In this document: positions 1 through 46,054 of the stretch, piece by piece
Numbering within the stretch: the stretch's first letter is position 1
How the letters are laid out: each line of letters begins with the position of its first letter
Source of the DNA: Flectonema sp. DT1601
Lineage: Eukaryota
Assembly (NCBI GenBank): GCA_964019425.1
Contig: OZ025781.1
Location: forward strand, 930,001 to 994,000
Reading direction: 5' to 3'
Length of the DNA: 64,000 bases
Translations under genes and position numbers: made by a program
The notes under the pieces: generated by a model
Told to the model about the DNA's origin: nothing
The model's input: only the letters and a program-made list of their open reading frames with translations
The model's database searches: none

Positions 1-1256
1 CTGTTTGTTCTCTTGAGGGAACTGAACACAGCCCGGGCTTCTTCCTGCGAGAAAGGACTACACTCCGGAGTTTCATAGTCACCAGGTTTTACCTTTGGAG
101 CTTCTGGCCTAGTACTGTCAGAGCCGCTTGGGAAGAAACGGCTTATAAGCGACGTCATTGGAGCTCGTGGTGTTGGAAGTGCCGTCTTATCACCCCTGAG
201 TTCCCGTATTTTTCTGTAGGTCCACGAGAAGCCCTTATCACAACCTTGGGAGGCTACTTGGCTGGGGGATAGAGGAGCTAGGATACGTTCCCTTCCCTTG
301 TGTCGAGGCTTGCACCACTTGTTGGGTAGCTTGGCGATTGCTACTTTTTCTACCGTATGGACAAAGTTGTTTGAGAGTTTCTTCAAGGATTTTATCTTTA
401 ATAGTCGTGTTGTGTGTGATTCCAATGTATCAGAAAAGGCTGTCCAGTGTGCATCTTGGAACTGATTGAGGAGCCATTTGCGGTGTGGTGGTGAGTTGCT
501 AAAGTTTGAGAAAGTCGTGATATCGAAGTCCGCTAAGATAGGTGTATGATCCGACATTAGTGCGTCAGGGTCATATTGGCAAACGCTCAGACATTTATGC
601 TGAGGAGAGTGTAAGACCAGATCGGGGGTTGTACCGTGTTTCGGAATCGTCGGTTTGAGCTGAACTAACTCCAATCCGTTGTCATTTATCCAGTCAAAGA
701 CCGTTGAGCCTGCTGATTTTGTAGGGACTTTCTGTGACCAGGATTCATGATGGGCGTTAAAGTCACCAAAAGCCATGTCACCTAGATCGTATGATGATGG
801 AAGGCGTGAAACACCGGGTGGAATATATATATTCTTAAAAGTTATGGAACCTATTGTTGAAGCGAGGCTGAATTCCAGCGCCTCAATGTCGGAGGATCCA
901 GATGATACGTCGTTGTTGTGAGAGATCTTTAAACCATTTCTGAAATACGTCAGTAGGCCACCACCCCGGCTCTTGGAGACTGTCTTCCTGTCTCTCCTAA
1001 TGTACGAGTACCCATCCATATGTAAAAGATCACTGTTGTTCTCATTCAGCCAGGTCTCCTGCAGGTTTATTATATCAGGGTTTGTTGCGTTAACGATGGA
1101 CTCTAAGGCTGCTCTAGTGTTAGTAAGCGACCTTAGATTCCAGGATAAAATTCTCAGAGGACCCGGGTTTTGTTCTATCCCCGATCGGATTAAGAGCTGC
1201 CTCGCGGTGACCGTCAGATGGAAATCCCTGCTGGGATGTGGTTGGGGATGTCGTTG
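1..1256 (-). CDS. LINE ORF2: 2A-like leader, APE endonuclease, linker and start of the RT region (partial)
   Basis: Manual translation shows no stop from 1256 to 1: LRILSWNLRSL..PDIINLQETWL..RRDR..RGGG..NIYIPP..GDFNAHH..TPDLV..SDHTPI (APE motifs), ending SPFSQEEARAVFSSLK (pre-RT motif). First ATG is at 1019, downstream of the QET motif. Not in the ORF track. Confidence 0.92.
1158..1256 (-). other. 2A-like (StopGo/ribosomal skipping) peptide
   Basis: QRHPQPHPSRDFHLTVTARQLLIRSGIEQNPG/P directly before the APE domain. Same position as the trypanosomatid L1Tc 2A (..LLLSGDIEQNPGP) and nearly the same motif, but without the Asp. Confidence 0.8.
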
Positions 1257-3299
1257 CTATTGCTTTGACATAGAACTCCGGTGAGGCGTCCTACCCCGTG
1301 ATCTGCTGGGGGTATTCGTTCTGTCCCCGTAGGGAGAGAAGGAGTCTTGTAGCTGCTTTGCCACCTCTGATTCCTGTCCCAGGACTGATTTAGACCTGAT
1401 TCTGTTCAGCATCGTCTTGTTGGATGCTTTCTTCGGAGGTGCCTTCGTGACTGGTGCTGTTGTGACTTCAGCAGTTGGAGGCTGTGCCGGCTTACCGTGC
1501 ACCGGAGGTTTCATGTTCTGAGGTGGCACTTCAGTTGTTTCCGCAAGAGGAGACCCTTCCGGCGATGAGGACTGTTGAAGAACAGTGTGTTCGATCGAGA
1601 GTTTCTGCTCGTGCATTTGGTTAAGCCGAGCTAACAACTCCGATATTCTTCGTGACAGGTTAGCCACTTCGTCGGTGAGTCGGGAGTTCTGTTCCTGCAT
1701 TTTAACTTGCTGTTTCAGAAGATCTTGGATGCGAGCGTCTCTGTCTTCTAATGACGCCTGTGTCCGTGCTGACTGGTCCTTCTGTTGTTGATCTTGACGA
1801 GCCATGAGATCCGAGGCCTGTTCTGTTAAGCCCGTCACTTTGTCGGTTAGGTGGCCGTTCTGGACCTGCATCTGTCGCTGTTGTTTGAGAAGTTCTCCGA
1901 TTCGAGTGTCCTTAGCGGAGTCGGATGGGGACGTAGTGTCAGTTGGGGTGCTGTTGTCCGGTGAAGGAGCAGAGTCATCTGGTGAGCTATCATCTATTGT
2001 TGAAGTAGGGAGCGATGGATATTCCGCTTCGTTACGTGGTGGCGGTTCTCGTTTGGACTCTCGGTTTATAGTCAGGAGGCCATGTCCCTTGCAGTGAACG
2101 GTGGAGAAGGTCGGTTCTTCTAGTGATTTCACTACAAAGAAACCTCTGCTACCCTTCTTCCTGTGGTGAGTCGCTGTGTCTACAATCCAACCCTGTCCAC
2201 CTAGAATCTTGATGAGGTCTGTAGTGCTGATCCTATGGAGAGAGGGACCTGTTATGAAGTAGCGGGTACCCGGTGTTGGAGGAGGCATGGCTAGTTGTCC
2301 CAGAGTCTTACGTGTATCTAGTTCCCTTCCCGGGTAAGTAACTAAACCAAGCTTCTTCGTTCCACGAAGAAGGATGACTGCCGCGTCGCAATAATCTGCA
2401 GCCTTGCGGGCAGTATTTAAGTCTGCTGTGTCCAGTCTGATCACGACTGTTTTCGGTAGGTCTTCTTGTATGTGTCTCGAAGCAGAGATAAAGAAGCCCT
2501 TGTGTTCCGCTGGAACGTGCGCTTGCAGGCGGTGAACTGCATCAGTAGGTATACGAAGGTTCACCGATGACACCTTCGGGGTGCGGACTTTAGATGCCCA
2601 TATCTGGTGACGGTCTATGGGAGAGAAAGAGTGGTTCTTCGCAAAGTCGTTGTAGATCTTCAAGGCCGCTGCAGATAGATCCGAGGTTGAGAGTGCTTCG
2701 GTCTCACCGTGTCCAGAGTGGTAGTTCAGTTGAACCACTCCGTTCGATACAGGATCCCCGCCCGAACGGACTAAAAGTTTGGCTATGGAGCCTGAGATTG
2801 TCGTTGCGTAGGCCTTGCGGACTACCGTCTTACCATCTAAGAGCAAAGGTACTTGAATAAGGGTACCTTTACCCGGGTCTTCAGTTGTAATTGCCGTTAA
2901 ACGGCCTGTGTTGCTTCGTCGTTGGAGTTGTGGTATCTGGTCTGTCGGTAACAGAAATACAGCCGAAGCCACTGCAGGGTTGTTGATGACTTCACAGCCA
3001 TCTTTGACCTTAAGGTCCCAATCCTCATCGCGGAGTTGAGCCTTCCCCCACGGTTTTGCTGGTTTTAGTTGTCTGGACACTACTGTTGCCCATGACGAGT
3101 TCTTCTTCGTATCTTCAGAACCCGTCTGCCTCGGTGTTTTCGACTTTGGTCTCGGTGATGGAGCCGTTCTCGGTGGAGCTGCCTTCGGTCTCGACACTGA
3201 TGGCGGCGGAGGTTGCTTGTTCCTGCCATCTTGCGTGTTAGCTACCATGCTTAGCAGGGCGCTTAACAAGGTCTTCAACTGGACCCTCTTCTTTTTCAT
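1257..3299 (-). CDS. LINE ORF1 protein (basic N-terminus, central globular region, duplicated coiled coil)
   Basis: 680-aa ORF upstream of ORF2. Two related heptad segments, DTRIGELLKQQRQMQVQNGHLTDKV and DARIQDLLKQQVKMQEQNSRLTDEV. Ends in TAG in frame with ORF2. Confidence 0.85.
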   Translation of the reverse strand: MKKKRVQLKTLLSALLSMVANTQDGRNKQPPPPSVSRPKAAPPRTAPSPRPKSKTPRQTGSEDTKKNSSWATVVSRQLKPAKPWGKAQLRDEDWDLKVKDGCEVINNPAVASAVFLLPTDQIPQLQRRSNTGRLTAITTEDPGKGTLIQVPLLLDGKTVVRKAYATTISGSIAKLLVRSGGDPVSNGVVQLNYHSGHGETEALSTSDLSAAALKIYNDFAKNHSFSPIDRHQIWASKVRTPKVSSVNLRIPTDAVHRLQAHVPAEHKGFFISASRHIQEDLPKTVVIRLDTADLNTARKAADYCDAAVILLRGTKKLGLVTYPGRELDTRKTLGQLAMPPPTPGTRYFITGPSLHRISTTDLIKILGGQGWIVDTATHHRKKGSRGFFVVKSLEEPTFSTVHCKGHGLLTINRESKREPPPRNEAEYPSLPTSTIDDSSPDDSAPSPDNSTPTDTTSPSDSAKDTRIGELLKQQRQMQVQNGHLTDKVTGLTEQASDLMARQDQQQKDQSARTQASLEDRDARIQDLLKQQVKMQEQNSRLTDEVANLSRRISELLARLNQMHEQKLSIEHTVLQQSSSPEGSPLAETTEVPPQNMKPPVHGKPAQPPTAEVTTAPVTKAPPKKASNKTMLNRIRSKSVLGQESEVAKQLQDSFSPYGDRTNTPSRSRGRTPHRSSMSKQ

Positions 3300-3370
3300 T
3301 GTTTTTTTGGAGATGTTACTGAGGGGAGACGCACCTTACTGCTCTTTCACCGTATTGTTTGGATCGAGAT

Positions 3371-3408
3371 CAATAAAGTACAGAAACTGTAGCTTTAGAA
3401 TCGTTGGT
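3371..3408 (-). other. Retroposed copy of the spliced-leader exon (38 of 39 nt)
   Basis: Minus strand reads ACCAACGATTCTAAAGCTACAGTTTCTGTACTTTATTG. It contains the euglenozoan SL core ACAGTTTCTGTACT.TATTG and a diplonemid-type 5' part. Followed by ATCTC rather than a GT donor, so it is not an SL RNA gene. Confidence 0.92.
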
Positions 3409-3545
3409 GGAGAAGTGATTGAACTTGAGGACAAGAAACGACTTCCAATAGAAGTGACGCTACAAAGTCCTGAAAGATCAAGAGCAGTGATTCGAGAACA
3501 GGAAGTCAAAAAATTATCTCTAATAGTAACAACACTACTAAGACC

Positions 3546-3569
3546 TGAAAGTTAGTTAGTTAGTGAAAG
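3546..3569 (-). mobile_element. Micro-insertion (CTAA)3 flanked by a 6-bp direct repeat CTTTCA
   Basis: Plus strand: tgaaag-ttagttagttag-tgaaag. Sister LRR units read GAY CTT TCA GGW CTT with no insert. It introduces an in-frame TAA. Confidence 0.7.
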
Positions 3570-3595
3570 GTCAAGAGCAGTGATTTGTGAACAGG

Positions 3596-4305
3596 AAAAA
3601 AAAAAAAAAAAATTAACCAGTGTTTAGGGGTTTGAATCCCATGGATCCCGTCGCTCAGGCGGTCCGGTGGAGAACCGGGTAGGGCACTGTGAACGAGTTG
3701 CGGTCCAGGTGGCGTCGGAAGGCCACCGCACCAACAGATTTGTTTCTTCGCACAACAGTAGCTTGGAGACCGTAAGAGACCCAAGGTGGTTCACAACCGC
3801 TCGAACAACCGCGTGTGAAGGAACAAGATTGAAAAGAAAAGAATATAAGAAAAGAAATGCCACACACAAAAAACGACGTAGTAAAGCAGAGAGGTAGGGG
3901 GAGGGATGGCCTCTTTCTCCACACATTGCATGGGAGCTCCCCGAGTAACTCGCGGGGCTGATACTGTTAATACATTTCAGGCGACCTGAACTTATAATCC
4001 CCCCATGCGTGAAAAGACTAAACGGGGGAAGTTTGAAGGAAATGGGGGTAAAGGGAAATCATGCCACTAAGGAAAAAATAAAAACCCGGTGGCCCCTGTG
4101 AGCTCTGGGTGCCTGAGTCTCCCGGGCCGGATCACCTGACCTTCTGCTATGTTGTCCTTTTTTTTTTTTTTAAAGGTTAGGCTACCGGAAAATAAAACGG
4201 GGGTAAAAGAATACACAGCAACAACAATACGTCAGCACTCTAGTTACACACAAGGTGCATCCAGGTAACACCACGAGGAGGCGCGCTATCCGAGTTTCGT
4301 TACCC
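3596..4305 (-). mobile_element. Non-autonomous, non-coding retroelement (SINE/SIDER-like, possibly composite) with a 5' HDV-like ribozyme
   Basis: About 710 bp of non-LRR sequence inside LRR coding sequence. Starts at the ribozyme G1, has an internal A14 (4171-4158) and several GC hairpins, and ends in T17 (minus strand). Flanks are TGTTCACGAATCACT and TGTTCACAAATCACT. Confidence 0.75.
4234..4305 (-). ncRNA. HDV-like self-cleaving ribozyme
   Basis: P1 GGGUAAC/GUUACCU (G1-U wobble), P2 AGCGC/GUGCU, P3 GCC/GGU, L3 UCCUCGU, P1.1 CC/GG, P4 AUGCAC-CUU-GUGUGU, J4/2 AACUAGA containing the candidate catalytic C. The full nested double pseudoknot can be built by hand. Confidence 0.85.
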
Positions 4306-5377
4306 AAGTGATTCGTGAACACTCATACAAGAAATAATCCTTAATAGCTACAACATTATGAAGACATGAAAGGTCAATAGTAATGATTTGTGAACAGGAA
4401 GTCAAAAAATAAAACCCAATAGTGGTAACACTACTAAGTCCTGAAAGATCAAGAGTAGTGATTCGTGTACAGGAAGACAAGAAAAAATCCTCAACAGTGG
4501 TGACACTTTTAAGACCTGAAAGGTTAAGGGAGGTGATTGAACTTGAGGACAAGAAATTACCTCCAATAGTAGTGACGCTACTAAGTTCTGAAAGATCAAG
4601 AGCAGTGATTTGAGAACATTTACGCAAGAAGCCTTGAGATATGACTGTGATGTCGGAATTCGAATTGCGGAAAGATATCTGTAATAATTTAGCATCTAAA
4701 GGCAGCAAATCAGTAAAAGTGAGGCAACCGTCTTCTGAGAATGTAGGGGTGTCCAGATATAATTTCCCGCTGTTGCTTCGAAGCCAACGAAGAAGCCTTT
4801 CCCGCATAGAATCATCAACAAACCAGCATTTACCGAACAAACGAAACCGCTTCTTCCACATTTCCAATTCGCTGTTTGTATCCACTCCGTGATCCGCAAG
4901 CCTCTCAGTTTCACAAAGAATGTCACCAGCAAACGAGAGTTCAACTTCCTCCAGATCGATATCCCACTCCTCAGCCGCCGCCGTCAACACGTCGCTCACA
5001 ATGGAATCAACACTAGCCGTGACTGACACCGCAGGGAGTCCCAAATCTGGGCAAGTTACAGAAATTTGCATTTTGTTGAGTAATCTGCCGAAAAGAAACG
5101 AAGGGGTAACTTGACACTGTGATTAAATATAAGAGGGTGTTAATTATCCAGAAAATGTGTGTCCAAACGTCAAATGATTCCTTCTTTCCTTTTATCGGTG
5201 TATTGTTGGGGTTGTTGTACTTCTCCCTCTCTGATAGCAGCCTTCCCCTGGTTGGAACAACAATAAACTTCTTAATACTAAAATAGGTAAGAGGGTTAAA
5301 CTGAAAAAAGTGACAGAAAATTGGTTGAAACCTTTGACAGTAACAACTTTAATTATTTGTAGTAGTAATTGATAGGC

Positions 5378-5695
5378 CTGGAGCAGGGGGGTTAATTGTT
5401 CGAGTTCGTACGTAAAATACAAATGTTTTGTATCATAAACAACATAACGATAATTTAACATTAGTTCTGAGATACAGTGACTAAAGGTAATGTTAGTGTA
5501 GGTATACACACTGTGATTGACGTAAATACTTTACATTATAATAAATGTTTCTAACTTAGCTGCATACACATCTCTTTTTCCGTGTTGGAGCAGGGGGGAT
5601 GTATGTTCGATTTTGTAAAAATTACAACTGTGTTGTATCATAAAAACATAAAGATAATTTAACATTAGTTTTAAATACAGTGACTAAGGGTGATG
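5378..5695. repeat. Degenerate direct repeat, two copies of about 110 bp, about 207 bp apart
   Basis: tggagcaggggg..tgttcga..ttgtatcataaa..gataatttaacattagtt..atacagtgactaa.ggt.atg at about 5378-5492 and 5585-5695; partial gagcaggggg again near 5908. Confidence 0.7.
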
Positions 5696-6392
5696 CGCAA
5701 CTTAGCATATTAAAGTAACTATAGGTTTCGAGAGTAATCCATATACCTCTTACCTCTATTCTCTCTCATCAGTATGGTGTAGAAGTAAGTCAGTCAAATG
5801 TTGAGACTGAGTCATTCCAGTTTGCAGGACTGGAATGTAGTTACTTTAAGTTTCATGTTCATAATAAAAAAAAACATATTTTTTACTGTTACTAGTTCGT
5901 AGCTCACTAGAGCAGGGGGGGTAAAAAAATGATAACAAACACAAGAAAAAAAAGGTCGCAAGACTCAGAGACGGTACAATTGTGAGTATTTGAACATAAT
6001 AAACAAACTTAGCGGACTTTTAATTAGAACCGATGGGCCAATGCATAGCAGAAAACTACAACGGCTAGCCTTAATCGGAACGAGCAGTACATTACAATAA
6101 CGGTAATAAAATATTACCAACCTGATCTTCTTATAGACCCAATGGAGTGGTGAAATAATTCACTTCTTTGTTATTTCCCAAAAAGAACTAAATAAATTAT
6201 TCGACCCCACCGTGAAGTGTGTTATTATAATTTAGCTAACCATTTTACTTAACAACAAAAAACAAAAAAAAAAAATGTAAATTTAGAGATTTATTTCTAC
6301 GCTCATAAAGAAAATAAATAGCAAAAAGCAAAATAGGATGGTTGTGAAGGTTTTCGTAAGACAACAACTGCAGTTGCAATGGTGATGAACAT

Positions 6393-7637
6393 TTAATAGA
6401 CCCATTGAGTTTTCATCATTGCTAAATATCTAGTTCTCACAAGACTATACGGAGTTGATACTCGAGAAGCCGTATAAACTGTGGGGAAGTATGAAGAACG
6501 AGGGAAGTACGAAGGAGTAGGAGACCTAGTCTGAGATACATCAATCTCATACTTGTAATCATCTTCATGAGATACATATCGAGACCGACTACCAGATGAG
6601 TATCGAGATCTTCGTGACGGAGTATCAAATGACGCTCGTCGAGGAGATTGCGTACCGAGAGATCGAGTTCCAGTATTAAAAACAACATCATCTTTAGAGT
6701 CTTCCTCGTCAATATTTATTGTAGCCTGAGTACCCACTGAAACAGAAAAAGATCGAGTAGCAGGTTTACGAACAACATCATTGTTGATGTGTACACCATG
6801 ACTACTATTCTTTAAGTGGTTCTCTGCTTTATCTCTGATGTTGACGTCTTTTGGTAATCCAGTGTCGAACATTTCATCAGCGAGGTTTTGAAGTTTTTCA
6901 GACAGCGACTTTTGACTTGCCGTACTTTGACCATCAGAGTCAGGTTGGTGTTGAAGGGACAGCAGTACTTTACAAAACTGAGCAAACAGATCGAAGAGTT
7001 CCGTTTTTCTAGTTAGCAGTAAATTAAAATCATCCGTCGCGTCAGATTGTTTTGACTCGCCATCAATAGGAAGTCTGCGGCTGGCTACGGACACACTCTC
7101 TTCAGGGGAAGTTGTTAAGTGTTTTTGATCCATCGTAAATATTGGATATTGAGCATCTGTTATATCGACTGATGAGGATGGTTGTCTATCATGTTGAACT
7201 CTTCTTGAAATGAATGGAGATCGAAGACACTTTAACTGCTGCTCATTTCCACCACCTGCACCCCAAAGTATTGGAGATTCTGTAGGTGTTGTGATGATGT
7301 GTTTTGAAGGAGTAAATCTCTGCATAGGAGCAGTATTATAACTCTGCATTGGAGTCATGTTAACAAGTAGTTCATCATCTTCATCTGGTTCAGTATCTGC
7401 CTGATCACTTCGATAACTAAAGGTCACTGGGCGAACTTCTGCTATCGATTCAAAACTAAAATCGAAAACCCGATCCTTGACGAAGTCTTGTTCTTCTGCT
7501 TCTCTACTTAACTCAACATCTGACAGTTTGAACATTTCATCCAAGTCTGGCCAATTATTCCTCTCTCCTTCTCTGAAAGGATTCCTTGGAGCAGTTCTTG
7601 TTTCCCATCCGTATGGTGTTTCCGACGGGTCAACCAT
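6393..7637 (-). CDS. Hypothetical protein, 414 aa, S/R-rich C-terminus
   Basis: Long ATG-initiated ORF on the gene strand; no domain recognised. Confidence 0.7.
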   Translation of the reverse strand: MVDPSETPYGWETRTAPRNPFREGERNNWPDLDEMFKLSDVELSREAEEQDFVKDRVFDFSFESIAEVRPVTFSYRSDQADTEPDEDDELLVNMTPMQSYNTAPMQRFTPSKHIITTPTESPILWGAGGGNEQQLKCLRSPFISRRVQHDRQPSSSVDITDAQYPIFTMDQKHLTTSPEESVSVASRRLPIDGESKQSDATDDFNLLLTRKTELFDLFAQFCKVLLSLQHQPDSDGQSTASQKSLSEKLQNLADEMFDTGLPKDVNIRDKAENHLKNSSHGVHINNDVVRKPATRSFSVSVGTQATINIDEEDSKDDVVFNTGTRSLGTQSPRRASFDTPSRRSRYSSGSRSRYVSHEDDYKYEIDVSQTRSPTPSYFPRSSYFPTVYTASRVSTPYSLVRTRYLAMMKTQWVY

Positions 7638-26607: not shown

Positions 26608-29060
26608 TTAACTTCCGCAGTTGAGGCACTCTTCAGGTTCTTTGCTGGTGTCGTTTTCGGAAGCAGCTTCAGCAGCCTTTAATTGGTCCTGATCAACAGT
26701 GAATTTGATAGCGTCAACTGCTGGACGAGTTCTCAAGTAGTATTGACCAGTCTTAAGTCCCTTGTTCCAGGCGTGGAAGTGCATCGAAGTCAGTTGTCCT
26801 CTTGTCGGACTCGCTAAAAACAAGTTCAACGACTGACTCTGATCGATGTAAATAGATCTGGCAGCCGCCATGTTAATTAAATCTTTTTGTTTAATTTCCC
26901 AAACAGTCTTGTAGAGTTCCTTAATCTTTGATGGAATGCTGGAGATGTCTTGAATCGATCCGTTGTAGGCGATGATCTGGTTTCTGATGCTCTCATTCCA
27001 TAAGTTAGCCTTTATCAAATCCTTTACAAGGAACTTGTTAACAATTGGGAACTCACCAGAGAGTACTCTGCGAAGATAAATGTTTGATGTGAATGGTTCA
27101 AAGCACTCGTTGTTTCCAAGAATCTGACTCGTTGACGCAGTTGGCATCGGTGCGACTAACAGAGAGTTGCGCATTCCAGTTTTGACAATCTTCTTTCTGA
27201 GATCATCCCAATCGTATCTTCCGGACTTTGGAGTTGCTTTCCAAAGATCGAATTGAAATTTCCCCTTCGACATTGGAGATCCTTCCCAAGTAGCATATGG
27301 ACCTTCAATTAATGCTGCCTCATATGATGCCTGTTGTTGGTGTTGTTGTTGTCTTTTGAAACATAAGAAAAGTAAAGAAACAGTTAAACACAAAAAGGAG
27401 AACAGCATACCTCACAAGCGGAGAAGTAAATAGTTTCGAAGATATCCTCATTGAGAGACTGTGCCTCTGGTGATGCGAATGGGAGTTCTAACTTGAGGAA
27501 GGTATCAGCAAGTCCTTGAATACCAATTCCAATTGGTCTGTGTCTCATGTTTGACTTCTTAGCTTCAGGAACTGGGTAGTAGTTGAGATCAATTACACTG
27601 TTCAGGTTTCTGGTTACGATCTTTGTAATATCACGAAGCTTGGAGTGGTCGAAGAACGCTCCCTTGTCACCCTGAGCGACAAACTTTGGAAGTGCGATGG
27701 AGGCCAAGTTACAAACAGCTACTTCATCAGGAGCAGTGTACTCAACAATTTCTGTACACAAGTTACTGCATTTAATAGTACCCAAATGCTGTTGGTTAGA
27801 CTTTGAGTTGCAAGCATCTTTGTACAGAAGGTACGGAGTTCCAGTTTCCTGCTGCGATTCGATGATGGCAATCCAAAGTTTTGGGGCGTCAACCTGCTCA
27901 ACGTAAAGTCCTTCCCTCTCGTACTTGCAGTACAGATCCTCAAATTCCTGACCCCAGCAGTCAGCCAATCCCTTTGCGGAGTTTGGGTCAAAGAGCGACC
28001 ACTTGCCGTTTGTGTGTACTCTCTTCATGAACAAGTCAGGAACCCAAAGTGCGTAGAACAAATCTCTGGCACGGTTTTCCTCCTTACCAGTGTTCTTACG
28101 GAGGTTCAAGAACTCAAAAACGTCTGCGTGCCATGGCTCGAGGTAGATAGCGAAGGAACCCTTTCTCTTACCACCTCCCTGGTCAACGTAACGAGCAGTG
28201 TCGTTAAAGACACGAAGCATAGGAACTAAACCGTTAGACTGTCCATTGGTACCTCTGATGTACGATCCGTTTGCTCGGACGTTGTGGACGTGAATACCAA
28301 TTCCACCAGCGGTTTTGGAGATCATGGCGCATGTTTTCAGGGACTCGAAGATGCCTTCAATAGAGTCGTCCTTCATGGCAACCAAGAAACAGGAAGACAT
28401 TTGAGGGTTTGGAGTTGCTGCATTAAACAGAGTTGGTGTCGCGTGAGTGAACCATCCCTCACTGAGCATGTTGTAGGTTTCAATAACTCGGTCAATGTTT
28501 TCGTACCAAATTCCAACAGAAACTCTCATCAACATGTGCTGTGGACGTTCAGCAACGTAACGCTCTCCCTTACTATTGGCGAGCTTCAACAGGTATGATC
28601 TCTCAAGAGTTTTGTAACCAAAGAATTCATAATTCAAGTCTCTCTTGTAGTTAACAGCGTCATTTAAACGATCAGCGTTGGCTATGACTACTTCATATGC
28701 GCGGTCACAGATAAGTGGAGCCTTTTCTCCGTTACGTGGATTGACAAACTCATACAAGTCAGTGATAACTTGTGAGAAGCATGAATTTGTAGTTTTGTGC
28801 AATGTTGACACAGCAAGTCTACCAGCCAATAAAGCGTAATCAGGATGTTTCATTGCCAAGTAAGCAGCAGATTGCGCTACCAACTCATCAATCTTAACTG
28901 AAGGCATATTAGTTTGACATCCTTTATAAACAGTGTCGACAAGGACTTGTGCTGATACTCTCATGGTGTCTAGACCGAAGGTAAAATGTTCGATTCTCTT
29001 TCGCAGCTTTTCTCCGGAGAATGCCTCCCGTCTTCCATCACGCTTAATCACCGTCGACAT
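26608..29060 (-). CDS. RRM1: Ribonucleoside-diphosphate reductase large subunit (class Ia), 2 exons
   Basis: ATP cone (VIKRDGRRE), [37 protein letters not shown]-terminal CLNCGS. Intron 27331-27410 (GTATGC..CAG) joins FSACE|ASYE. Confidence 0.97.
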
Positions 29061-44007: not shown

Positions 44008-45601
44008 CTACTTACAAAGTTTGCAAGTTTTCTGACAAAATGACTTCATACCACTCTTGTTTTTAATGCACTCACCCGCAAGTGCCCAGTCAGGACACTT
44101 ATTGGGATATAAATCCTTACATCCTTCTGGTATTGGGTTTACGTCACCTTCTTCTCCATAGTTTGGCGGGACGGACATTTTTGCGACTCCCTGATGCCAC
44201 CATTCAGAAGGATCGATGTCATGAATGACTGCTAGTTCCTTCCATTTATCATCGTAAGGACCTCTACCTGCCCCGTAAGTAACACACCAGTGATCAGTAA
44301 ATGATTGGTGGTTTTGAAGTACTGGATCTAACCTTGAGAACTTCCAATATTGCCACAAAGATCTTTCCTTTCCTAAGCCATACTTTGGGAGTCCTATCGA
44401 CAGGTCGGAATCGGTTGTGTTGATGTCAATTAGTCGAGAACCTGGTTGTCCCGGTTTGGTAATCCCTAATATGTGTTGGATTCTTCTATGAGCTATGTGT
44501 TGGAAATGAGACACTTTCACTCCGTGAGTCTCCATGCGGGGTCCCCTTCTACCATATCTATGATACAATACATTAACACTTGGTGAGTATAAGTCATAGC
44601 CACTAGTCCACAATCGTATTCCAAGAAGTGATTCTTCTCCAAAAAAGAGATACGGCAAGTGGGGATCGAAAGGAACGTCCAATACCTGAATTAGTTTAGT
44701 TATTTTTGTAATTTTCAAACCCGCAAACCCACTTAAAGAAATAAATAACAGAAATACAAACCATACGACCAGGTCCAAAGACGAGTCCAGCACCCAAGTA
44801 TGGCTGAGGTTTTGGGTAGCTTGCACCAACGTAAGTATTCGCCCAGAATGGTCCTGGAAACCCTGCGGTCCAGCCACCATTCTTACCAAGGGCACAGAGA
44901 TAAGCGATTGCAGGAGTTTCTTTTGTTTCATCTTTTTCGTTGATGGCTTGCGGGTATGTTGTTAGAACTGATTTCATGTTACCAGTCTTGTCGTGTTCGT
45001 CAATAATAACTTCATCCCAATTACTAACAAATCTATTATGAGAGTCAATCATCATAAAGTAATCCTCACCTCTATAAAGAAGAGACGCTAAATGCCTTGC
45101 GTAAGTTGGACCTTTCGCATATTCTGATCTAAACGTACGAGATCTGATGTTGTCACTTGGACACCACGATTGTGTTCCACAAGTTTCATCCCATGAAAAG
45201 TGTGGAAGACAGATCTCTTTTTCTTTATTAGGATCAGCCTGACATATTAATCCAACAAAAACCCTTTCAGGTACAGCAGCCTTGGCGAATAGACTATGGA
45301 GAGTAATGTTTGCCTCAACATCTCGAAAAGCCGCGATCGATACGAATATACTTTTAGCTATTGGACTACCCTCAGGGTCACCCTTTGCTTTAGATATAAA
45401 CTCGCCTTGATTATCAGTGAATCCAATTGTTACATTATTAGCATTGTTTTTATTGCATTCAAAGTGTCGGGATACTTTAATATGATGACCAGGTCTCCAC
45501 AAGTCTCTCTTAGACATCGAAACTACCTGCCAGGAAATGAGCAGCGCAGTGAGCGCTAACCCTGCGAATAGTATCTTGCTCATGGGGGTCATTTTCTTCA
45601 T
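44008..45601 (-). CDS. GlcNAc-transferase (Gnt1/OGNT-like) with signal anchor and C-terminal ShKT domain, 2 exons
   Basis: IFVSIAAFRD, AKGPTYARH, MIDSHNRF, VPFDPHLPYLFFGEE..RLWTSGYD; intron 44686-44761; ShKT C.D...CPDWALAGEC..MKSFCQKTCKLC. Confidence 0.88.
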
Positions 45602-45655
45602 TTTTTTTTTTTTTTTTCCCTTAATTCACAACCCCCAACTGATAAGCGAAAAGAA

Positions 45656-45828
<173 letters not shown>

Positions 45829-46054
45829 TTTTTTTTTTTTTGAAAGAAGAAAAATAATCAAAAAAAAGTACCCATCCAACATTTCCATTTTTCACATTTG
45901 AACCTGTCTTACAAATTACTAAAAAGTACACAAAACAACACATCTCCAGCGGGCTATACTTTTAAAGCGTCCCCGATTTGTTAGTTGGGAGGGTTAAATG
46001 GGAAGGAAACACTTTCTTATGTTAGGAAGCGTACAAGCAACGCTTACACACTAG

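Follow-up and report, generated by a model that had tools for sequence, protein, structure and literature searches.

The spliced-leader junction

How does the exon of a host spliced leader (SL) come to stand at the head of a LINE that lies outside an SL array? The question is raised by a locus in the window, i.e., the whole stretch of 64,000 nucleotides that was analyzed from Flectonema sp. DT1601, where the minus strand contains positions 2-39 of the diplonemid SL exon as an identical stretch of 38 nt. Reading along this strand, an LRR repeat extends to 3410 and is followed by a C at 3409, the SL stretch (3408-3371), a UTR (3370-3300) and the ATG of ORF1 at 3299 (Table 1). These coordinates, together with the match to L006, a metagenome SL RNA gene with GT behind its exon that was used as the reference, agree with the earlier note, which had placed the SL exactly between LRR sequence and a 71-nt LINE 5'UTR. 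The 39-mer at 3409-3371 matches the L006 exon at 38 of 39 positions, the sole mismatch being position 1, and is thus a diplonemid-type SL exon from which position 1 is missing. A comparison by eye with the SL printed for 'Euglenozoa 14' gives 36 identities out of 39 (PMC3795323).

The pattern with which metagenomes were screened for the SL was derived from the window, so that 36 positions are forced and the real test lies in the free ones. At both wildcard sites, the bases of the window are those of 45 of the 46 JGI matches, and A occupies SL +1 in all 50 pattern matches (46 JGI and 4 viral). With the L006 match, this agreement supports the assumption made initially that the SL is the real one of this lineage. 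GT directly follows the SL in 32 of the 50 matches, of which at least one (L013) looks viral rather than like an SL gene. Behind the window SL, ATCTCG takes the place of GT, the LINE beginning at the point occupied by the GT donor in SL genes, and the 30 nt after the SL are identical at only 6-14 of 30 positions to those behind the 32 GT-followed SLs. Neither the GT donor nor the SL intron of an SL RNA gene is therefore present on the 3' side, in agreement with the earlier note. The 5' side likewise shows no SL-gene flank, the sequence there being LRR sequence in register (3412-3500 is 91% identical to 4530-4618, and the register is kept to 3410).

On both strands of the 64 kb, no further SL stretch of at least 11 nt can be found. 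An exact 38-mer is expected by chance about 1e-17 times, and with a 20-mer allowing up to 3 mismatches one match was observed against 0.05 expected; the junction is real, exact and well beyond chance. Regarding its first base, the A had been said to be replaced by C. Base 1 does differ, but the C at 3409 is found neither in the SL, which has A, nor in the LRR paralogue, which has T; the first base may therefore have been lost rather than replaced. In this single copy, its absence is compatible with a stop of the reverse transcriptase at a methylated cap nucleotide. The kinetoplastid SL carries a cap 4 (PMC13393146), a kinetoplastid cap that may not be that of diplonemids.

The junction falls on the last base of the exon, which is the join that trans-splicing makes for every mRNA, and can therefore be read as that of a LINE mRNA cDNA; reverse transcription of an SL-bearing RNA, as first proposed, is still the best account of a junction at the exact exon end. 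The same sequence could arise if the reverse transcriptase jumped from the 5' end of the LINE RNA to the 3' end of a free SL exon, or if RNAs were ligated, the SL then being a one-off passenger. A free SL exon likewise ends exactly at the donor, end-to-end template jumps are known for non-LTR reverse transcriptases, and U6-L1 chimeras are a parallel in which RNAs have been joined. However, as a spliceosomal intermediate the free exon does not last long, while trans-splicing makes this junction routinely, and we consider a jump or ligation very improbable.

Table 1. Positions of the features discussed in the text (window coordinates, or locus identifiers for the metagenome and viral contigs).
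Feature	Position	Strand	Remarks
SL exon positions 2-39	3371..3408	-	ends at the splice-donor position, no GT after it
Junction base C	3409	-	compared in register, neither SL +1 (A) nor LRR paralogue (T)
LINE 5'UTR, 71 nt	3300..3370	-	no ATG
Possible inner acceptor, AG after a short pyrimidine run	3319	-	within the LINE UTR
ORF1, 680 aa	1257..3299	-	without Pfam family; RRM-like (alpha/beta) domains and coiled coil (462-575) predicted
ORF1 stop, TAG between CAA codons	1254..1262	-	same frame as ORF2; candidate for a leaky stop
2A-like stretch ending SGIEQNPGP	1158..1217	-	putative; without the D of the signature
APE endonuclease domain of ORF2	537..1148	-	PF03372 E=6e-14, PF14529 E=3e-13
ORF2	1..1256	-	runs off the window; complete in family members (APE-RT-RNase H-CCHC)
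LRR (BspA-like) gene remnant	3410..3595	-	5' flank of the insertion; 91% to 4530-4618; repeat families
Candidate host acceptor, first AG after the T18 tract and three TAAC repeats	3545	-	region 3544..3613
T18 tract	3613-3596	-	
LRR gene	5071-4286	-	neighbour; LRR_5 domain
Giant-virus-like SL loci	L004, L005, L009, L010, L016, L017, L021, L022, L023		
Giant-virus-like SL loci (continued)	L031, L034, L040, L042, L043, L045-L048; also L052, L053, L093		

Organization of the element

An APE domain followed by a non-LTR reverse transcriptase (RT) identifies the element as a LINE (APE-type non-LTR); its Pfam APE matches and its insertion in an LRR remnant bear out the initial description of an APE-type LINE outside an SL array. 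ORF2 is identical to the family member P0019 over all 339 shared residues, after which P0019 continues with RT, RNase H and a CCHC motif. The RT and RNase H Pfam domains are found on the representative of the ORF2 cluster, the CCHC being seen as a motif, and the best PDB matches are R2 and L1 ORF2p. As far as the window extends, the reading frames of this copy are intact.

ORF1 is weakly predicted to contain RRM-like domains together with a long coiled coil. In a fold search, RRM proteins occupy most of the top rows, none of them at E≤0.001 and with a weak underlying model (pLDDT 58), and the ESM Atlas contains no match above 0.80. The ORF1 cluster comprises five distinct members, one of which is present on three contigs; among the relatives are P0179 (51%) and P0181 (28%; Flectonema neradi transcriptome), the nearest named ORF1 relative coming from that same transcriptome.

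Four of the five ORF1 cluster members end at the same stop residue. In the window, the stop stands in the context CAA-TAG-CAA-CGA, which is close to the tobamovirus readthrough signal TAG-CAR-YYA without matching it fully (PMC2754532). Downstream, the 2A-like stretch approaches the 2A signature GD(V/I)ExNPGP (PMC3708506), a canonical form of which can be found in the sister family F5. No ATG precedes the APE motifs of ORF2; the nearby ATGs are at 1271 (in the ORF1 frame), 1045 and 1019, the last being the first in-frame ATG of ORF2 and lying within the APE domain. As a guess from these motifs, readthrough of the ORF1 stop followed by ribosome skipping at the 2A-like stretch is a candidate way of producing ORF2. 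In the sister family F2, ORF2 has its own ATG. In F3 and F4, the Met from which ORF2 was called coincides with the 2A position or lies downstream of it; in F2 and F5, it lies upstream.

Insertion site and host region

With the exception of one, the 30 ORFs of at least 150 aa in the window lie on the minus strand, and they carry eukaryotic domains; the element is co-oriented with this gene cluster. In D. papillatum, genes are arranged in unidirectional clusters and essentially all mRNAs are described as carrying the SL (PMC10161547). From the T18 tract to ORF1 there is no ATG. A crude and uncalibrated acceptor filter picks out as acceptor-like two AGs of the flank, at 3545 and 3470, and one in the SL, at 3393; within the 1 kb on which it was run, it also accepts 8 further sites.

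The joining of a cDNA-derived read into genomic sequence during assembly would be a trivial source of such a junction. Against such a chimera, the contig bearing the neighbouring LRR protein is 1,013,941 bases long, the SL is bordered on one side by LRR sequence in register and on the opposite side by the LINE, and the host genes of the window are free of SL, all of which makes an artifact hardly credible.

Some 670 nt between the LRR gene and the remnant (3614-4285) have a GC content of 50%, compared with 38.5% in the host region, and contain an A-run (4158-4171, minus strand) and a tRNA B-box-like motif near 3625-3640 (plus strand). This interval gives no tRNA, Rfam or LINE protein match and is possibly another small mobile element; ARAGORN reports 0 tRNA genes over the window. 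Elsewhere on the minus strand, the ribonucleotide reductase large subunit (26608-29060) and a GlcNAc transferase (44008-45601) are each split over two overlapping ORFs by an intron, a frameshift or an assembly error, and a long ATT microsatellite (45655-45830) lies directly upstream of the GlcNAc transferase ORF.

Age, dispersal and relatives of the family

The LINE family is young and dispersed. Its ORF2 cluster has 18 members, and the 15 members listed fall on at least 13 distinct contigs; four long members show only 1-2 differences over 1294-1305 aa. Many others are truncated at the 5' end, most of these keeping the C-terminus, so that dispersed copies with variable 5' truncation can be found here as in other LINEs. 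In the truncated members P0023 and P0027, the N-termini stem from the flanks and are unrelated to each other. Read by eye, the N-terminus of P0023 looks like an antisense tRNA gene, in which case this copy would sit about 140 nt upstream of a tRNA gene. In P0180, the C-terminal part of ORF1 is fused to the C-terminus of ORF2, as in an internally deleted, non-autonomous derivative.

Five sister families (F2-F6) are probably present in the same assembly. In a FastTree analysis of 127 RT domains, a tree that includes no labelled clade reference, F1-F4 form one branch with a support of 1.0 and F5-F6 group with Flectonema proteins. The best-scoring named RT relatives outside insects come from the Flectonema neradi transcriptome. 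Along with the nearest named ORF1 relative and the type of SL, they point to a diplonemid host. By alignment, no ORF2 relative was found in viral contigs, and GTDB yielded one distant element, L049 (27%), an LINE-like APE-RT contig filed in a bacterial MAG that is probably eukaryotic contamination. A search with the antisense frame spanning the junction returned 9 candidates, none of them at E≤10.

The dispersal of the family bears on the second origin put forward in the earlier note, a master copy at the exon/intron boundary of an SL RNA gene, where the SL promoter would make a ready-capped SL-LINE RNA that seeds further copies. Such a master predicts the same junction, and APE elements can be specific for small-RNA genes, as is Keno for U2 (PMC4640811). 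Yet the family is dispersed, with the unrelated flanks of P0023 and P0027, and an SL-derived peptide is found in 0 of 228 proteins, truncated copies with flank-derived N-termini included, a count to which only in-frame flanks contribute. Moreover, a LINE relative is encoded in 0 of 48 SL loci, these being from other organisms, and insertion by chance at the exact donor would be very unlikely without target specificity. The claim is thus weakened, above all by the dispersal and the peptide count, and a master in an SL array appears a very unlikely source.

DNA-encoded spliced leaders in giant-virus-like contigs

All 18 SL matches without GT lie 18-19 nt behind the motif AAAA(A/T)TGA, which we take to be a mimivirus-type early promoter; among the GT-followed matches, 0 of 32 do. 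In giant-virus-like contigs, a complete diplonemid-type SL is fused to a short UTR and an ORF. One 238-kb IMG/VR contig harbors at least six of these SL-UTR-ORF units, with VLTF3-like, BRO-N and poly(A)-polymerase-subunit domains, and L052 is a GVMAG contig. The sequences point to viruses of diplonemids that may make host-like messages. No description of SLs encoded in the DNA of giant-virus-like contigs was found in the literature search; BsV is described as independent of the SL where PMC5871332 touches on the matter. In L056, a 110-kb IMG/VR contig, a kinetoplastid-type SL (1501-1519; 32/39 to the diplonemid SL) has no GT after it and a different upstream motif.

Like the window LINE, these contigs join the host SL in its complete form to a 5'UTR and an ORF at the DNA level, with no GT behind it. 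They differ from it by the spacing behind AAAA(A/T)TGA and by the first A, which is kept in 18 of 18; the LINE copy has neither. An SL encoded in DNA with a constant spacing to a promoter motif lends some weight to the possibility that the SL of the LINE is a fixed heritable head, captured once by trans-splicing and since passed on from parent to daughter copies, with transcripts starting at or beside SL +1 through an internal promoter or a cleavage of the Pr77 kind. The LINE shows neither a relict SL nor upstream element sequence, and several near-identical copies with a full ORF1 imply that some 5' end must be heritable. In addition, Pr77 binds TBP and SNAP50, which are also used for SL RNA genes (PMC8190864). 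On the other hand, an Rfam search over 3000-6500 gave 7 matches, all far below the gathering score, no viral-type promoter motif stands ahead of the window SL, and the supposed head has already lost its first base in this copy. The 3' end of the SL can form a helix of 12 pairs with the UTR, which was considered as a designed feature but turned out to be ordinary, being matched by 517 of 2000 shuffled UTRs and 165 of 323 71-mers from the LINE body. On balance, a fixed head is unlikely.

Origin of the copy

The copy probably originated from a trans-spliced LINE mRNA whose reverse transcription ended one base short of the cap. The earlier note, while naming an SL-bearing template, omitted the simplest version of this origin, namely a processed copy without the acceptor of its parent, similar to a SpIRE. 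A source copy with an AG acceptor before the 71-nt UTR would be read by the polycistronic transcription of the host, and the spliceosome would join the capped SL to the LINE RNA, discarding the upstream part. By target-primed reverse transcription, ORF2p would then insert a copy of the RNA that encodes it into the LRR remnant, in the orientation of the gene cluster. The daughter would lose the acceptor of the parent, a loss with parallels in human SpIREs and the relict leaders of dinoflagellates, and it could be re-expressed only via another acceptor, each giving a different 5' end. Candidate replacements are the host AG at 3545 or 3470, the SL AG at 3393 or 3387, and the UTR AG at 3319.

Within the 64 kb, the one SL stands at the head of the one APE-encoding element found, which fits the copying by ORF2p of its own RNA; LINE proteins show a cis-preference for their own RNA. 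The start of the UTR is identical to a relict SL at only 5/22 and 5/17 positions. As the UTR thus contains no relict SL, the parent would not have been an SL-headed copy re-spliced at the AG of its own SL. Counting against this origin as a whole are the single copy, whose 3' end and target-site duplication fall beyond the window, with no acceptor-bearing source copy among the data, and the fact that a family losing its acceptor at each round would need a way to persist. Furthermore, L1Tc transcripts are reported to be unspliced and the SL was present in 0 of 19 ingi/RIME cDNAs, a state that the authors deem necessary for autonomy (PMC1874656).

Comparison with known systems

The trypanosome L1Tc/ingi elements share with the window LINE the domain order APE-RT-RNase H. 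They too live in a euglenozoan host and have a short 5' leader (77 nt vs. 71 nt), and a 2A-like sequence is found directly before their APE domain (PMC3708506), a placement similar to that of the putative 2A-like stretch in the window. In contrast to the SL-headed LINE, L1Tc RNA is unspliced and starts at +1 of the Pr77 promoter, which is also an HDV-like ribozyme (PMC8190864; PMC1874656), and the Ingi clade is described as devoid of ORF1 (PMC3708506), while the window LINE has a 680-aa ORF1 with a conserved stop. At the gathering score, the Rfam search of 3000-6500 found neither the Pr77 hallmark of the Ingi clade nor an HDV-like ribozyme. The window LINE thus lacks two Ingi features, the single ORF and Pr77/ribozyme.

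In the SLACS/CZAR/CRE/NeSL group, the insertion lies inside the SL exon. Like the window LINE, these are non-LTR elements physically joined to an SL exon; they encode a restriction-like endonuclease and insert into SL genes (PMC4640811), whereas the window LINE is of the APE type, dispersed, and placed after the whole exon. No restriction-like endonuclease can be found in the window LINE, the Pfam list for the full-length ORF2 being APE, RT and RNase H, and its insertions are not confined to SL RNA genes, this copy being in an LRR remnant and the family dispersed. It is not a member of the SLACS/CZAR/NeSL group.

The SL-headed copy is most likely closest in its workings, by analogy, to a SpIRE made by trans-splicing. 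Human L1 SpIREs are copies of spliced RNA that have lost 5' cis sequence and are generally dead ends (PMC5860796), and in the window the junction is exact on the donor side. Here, however, the splice would be in trans and would add host sequence, and in a polycistronic genome the acceptor is lost instead of a promoter, with replacement acceptors nearby. In dinoflagellates, SL-tagged retrocopies of host genes are common, and the SL of relict-SL (DinoRL) retrogenes was written into DNA through reverse transcription of trans-spliced mRNA (PMC12014239). DinoRL retrogenes are host genes copied in trans, usually re-spliced with a partial relic left behind (PMC12014239), while in the window it is the retrotransposon itself that bears the SL, nearly complete and with no relic beside it, and the host genes of the window are without SL.

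The SL-headed copy is most likely the retrocopy of a trans-spliced LINE RNA. The literature search, which did not extend to subscription papers or Repbase, gave no description of an SL-headed LINE copy, and no diplonemid SL 5' motif was found in it. The seven text files of the PMC10161547 supplements contain no SL motif, although the repeat and splicing sections may be outside these files.

Implications for LINEs in a trans-splicing host

A complete and expressible 5' end is a standing problem for LINEs, and SL trans-splicing sharpens it by cutting away the upstream part of the transcript. Trypanosome LINEs avoid the splice; the window copy suggests that a diplonemid LINE passes through it and is copied afterwards. 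With one copy only, an occasional processed copy cannot be told from a strategy of the whole family. It is a possible but rather doubtful extension that the family has handed its 5' end over to the host: it would lack a promoter or ribozyme of its own, and all complete copies would be headed by the SL, the lineage persisting by a heritable head or by borrowed acceptors. If true, this would be an autonomous retrotransposon that receives its cap, its translation signal and its 5' boundary from SL trans-splicing, the reverse of the trypanosome LINEs. For the mapping of 5' ends by means of the SL, genomic SL copies such as this one can be misleading. At the same time, the copy would be a DNA record of a full-length, SL-bearing RNA having been reverse-transcribed in a euglenozoan.
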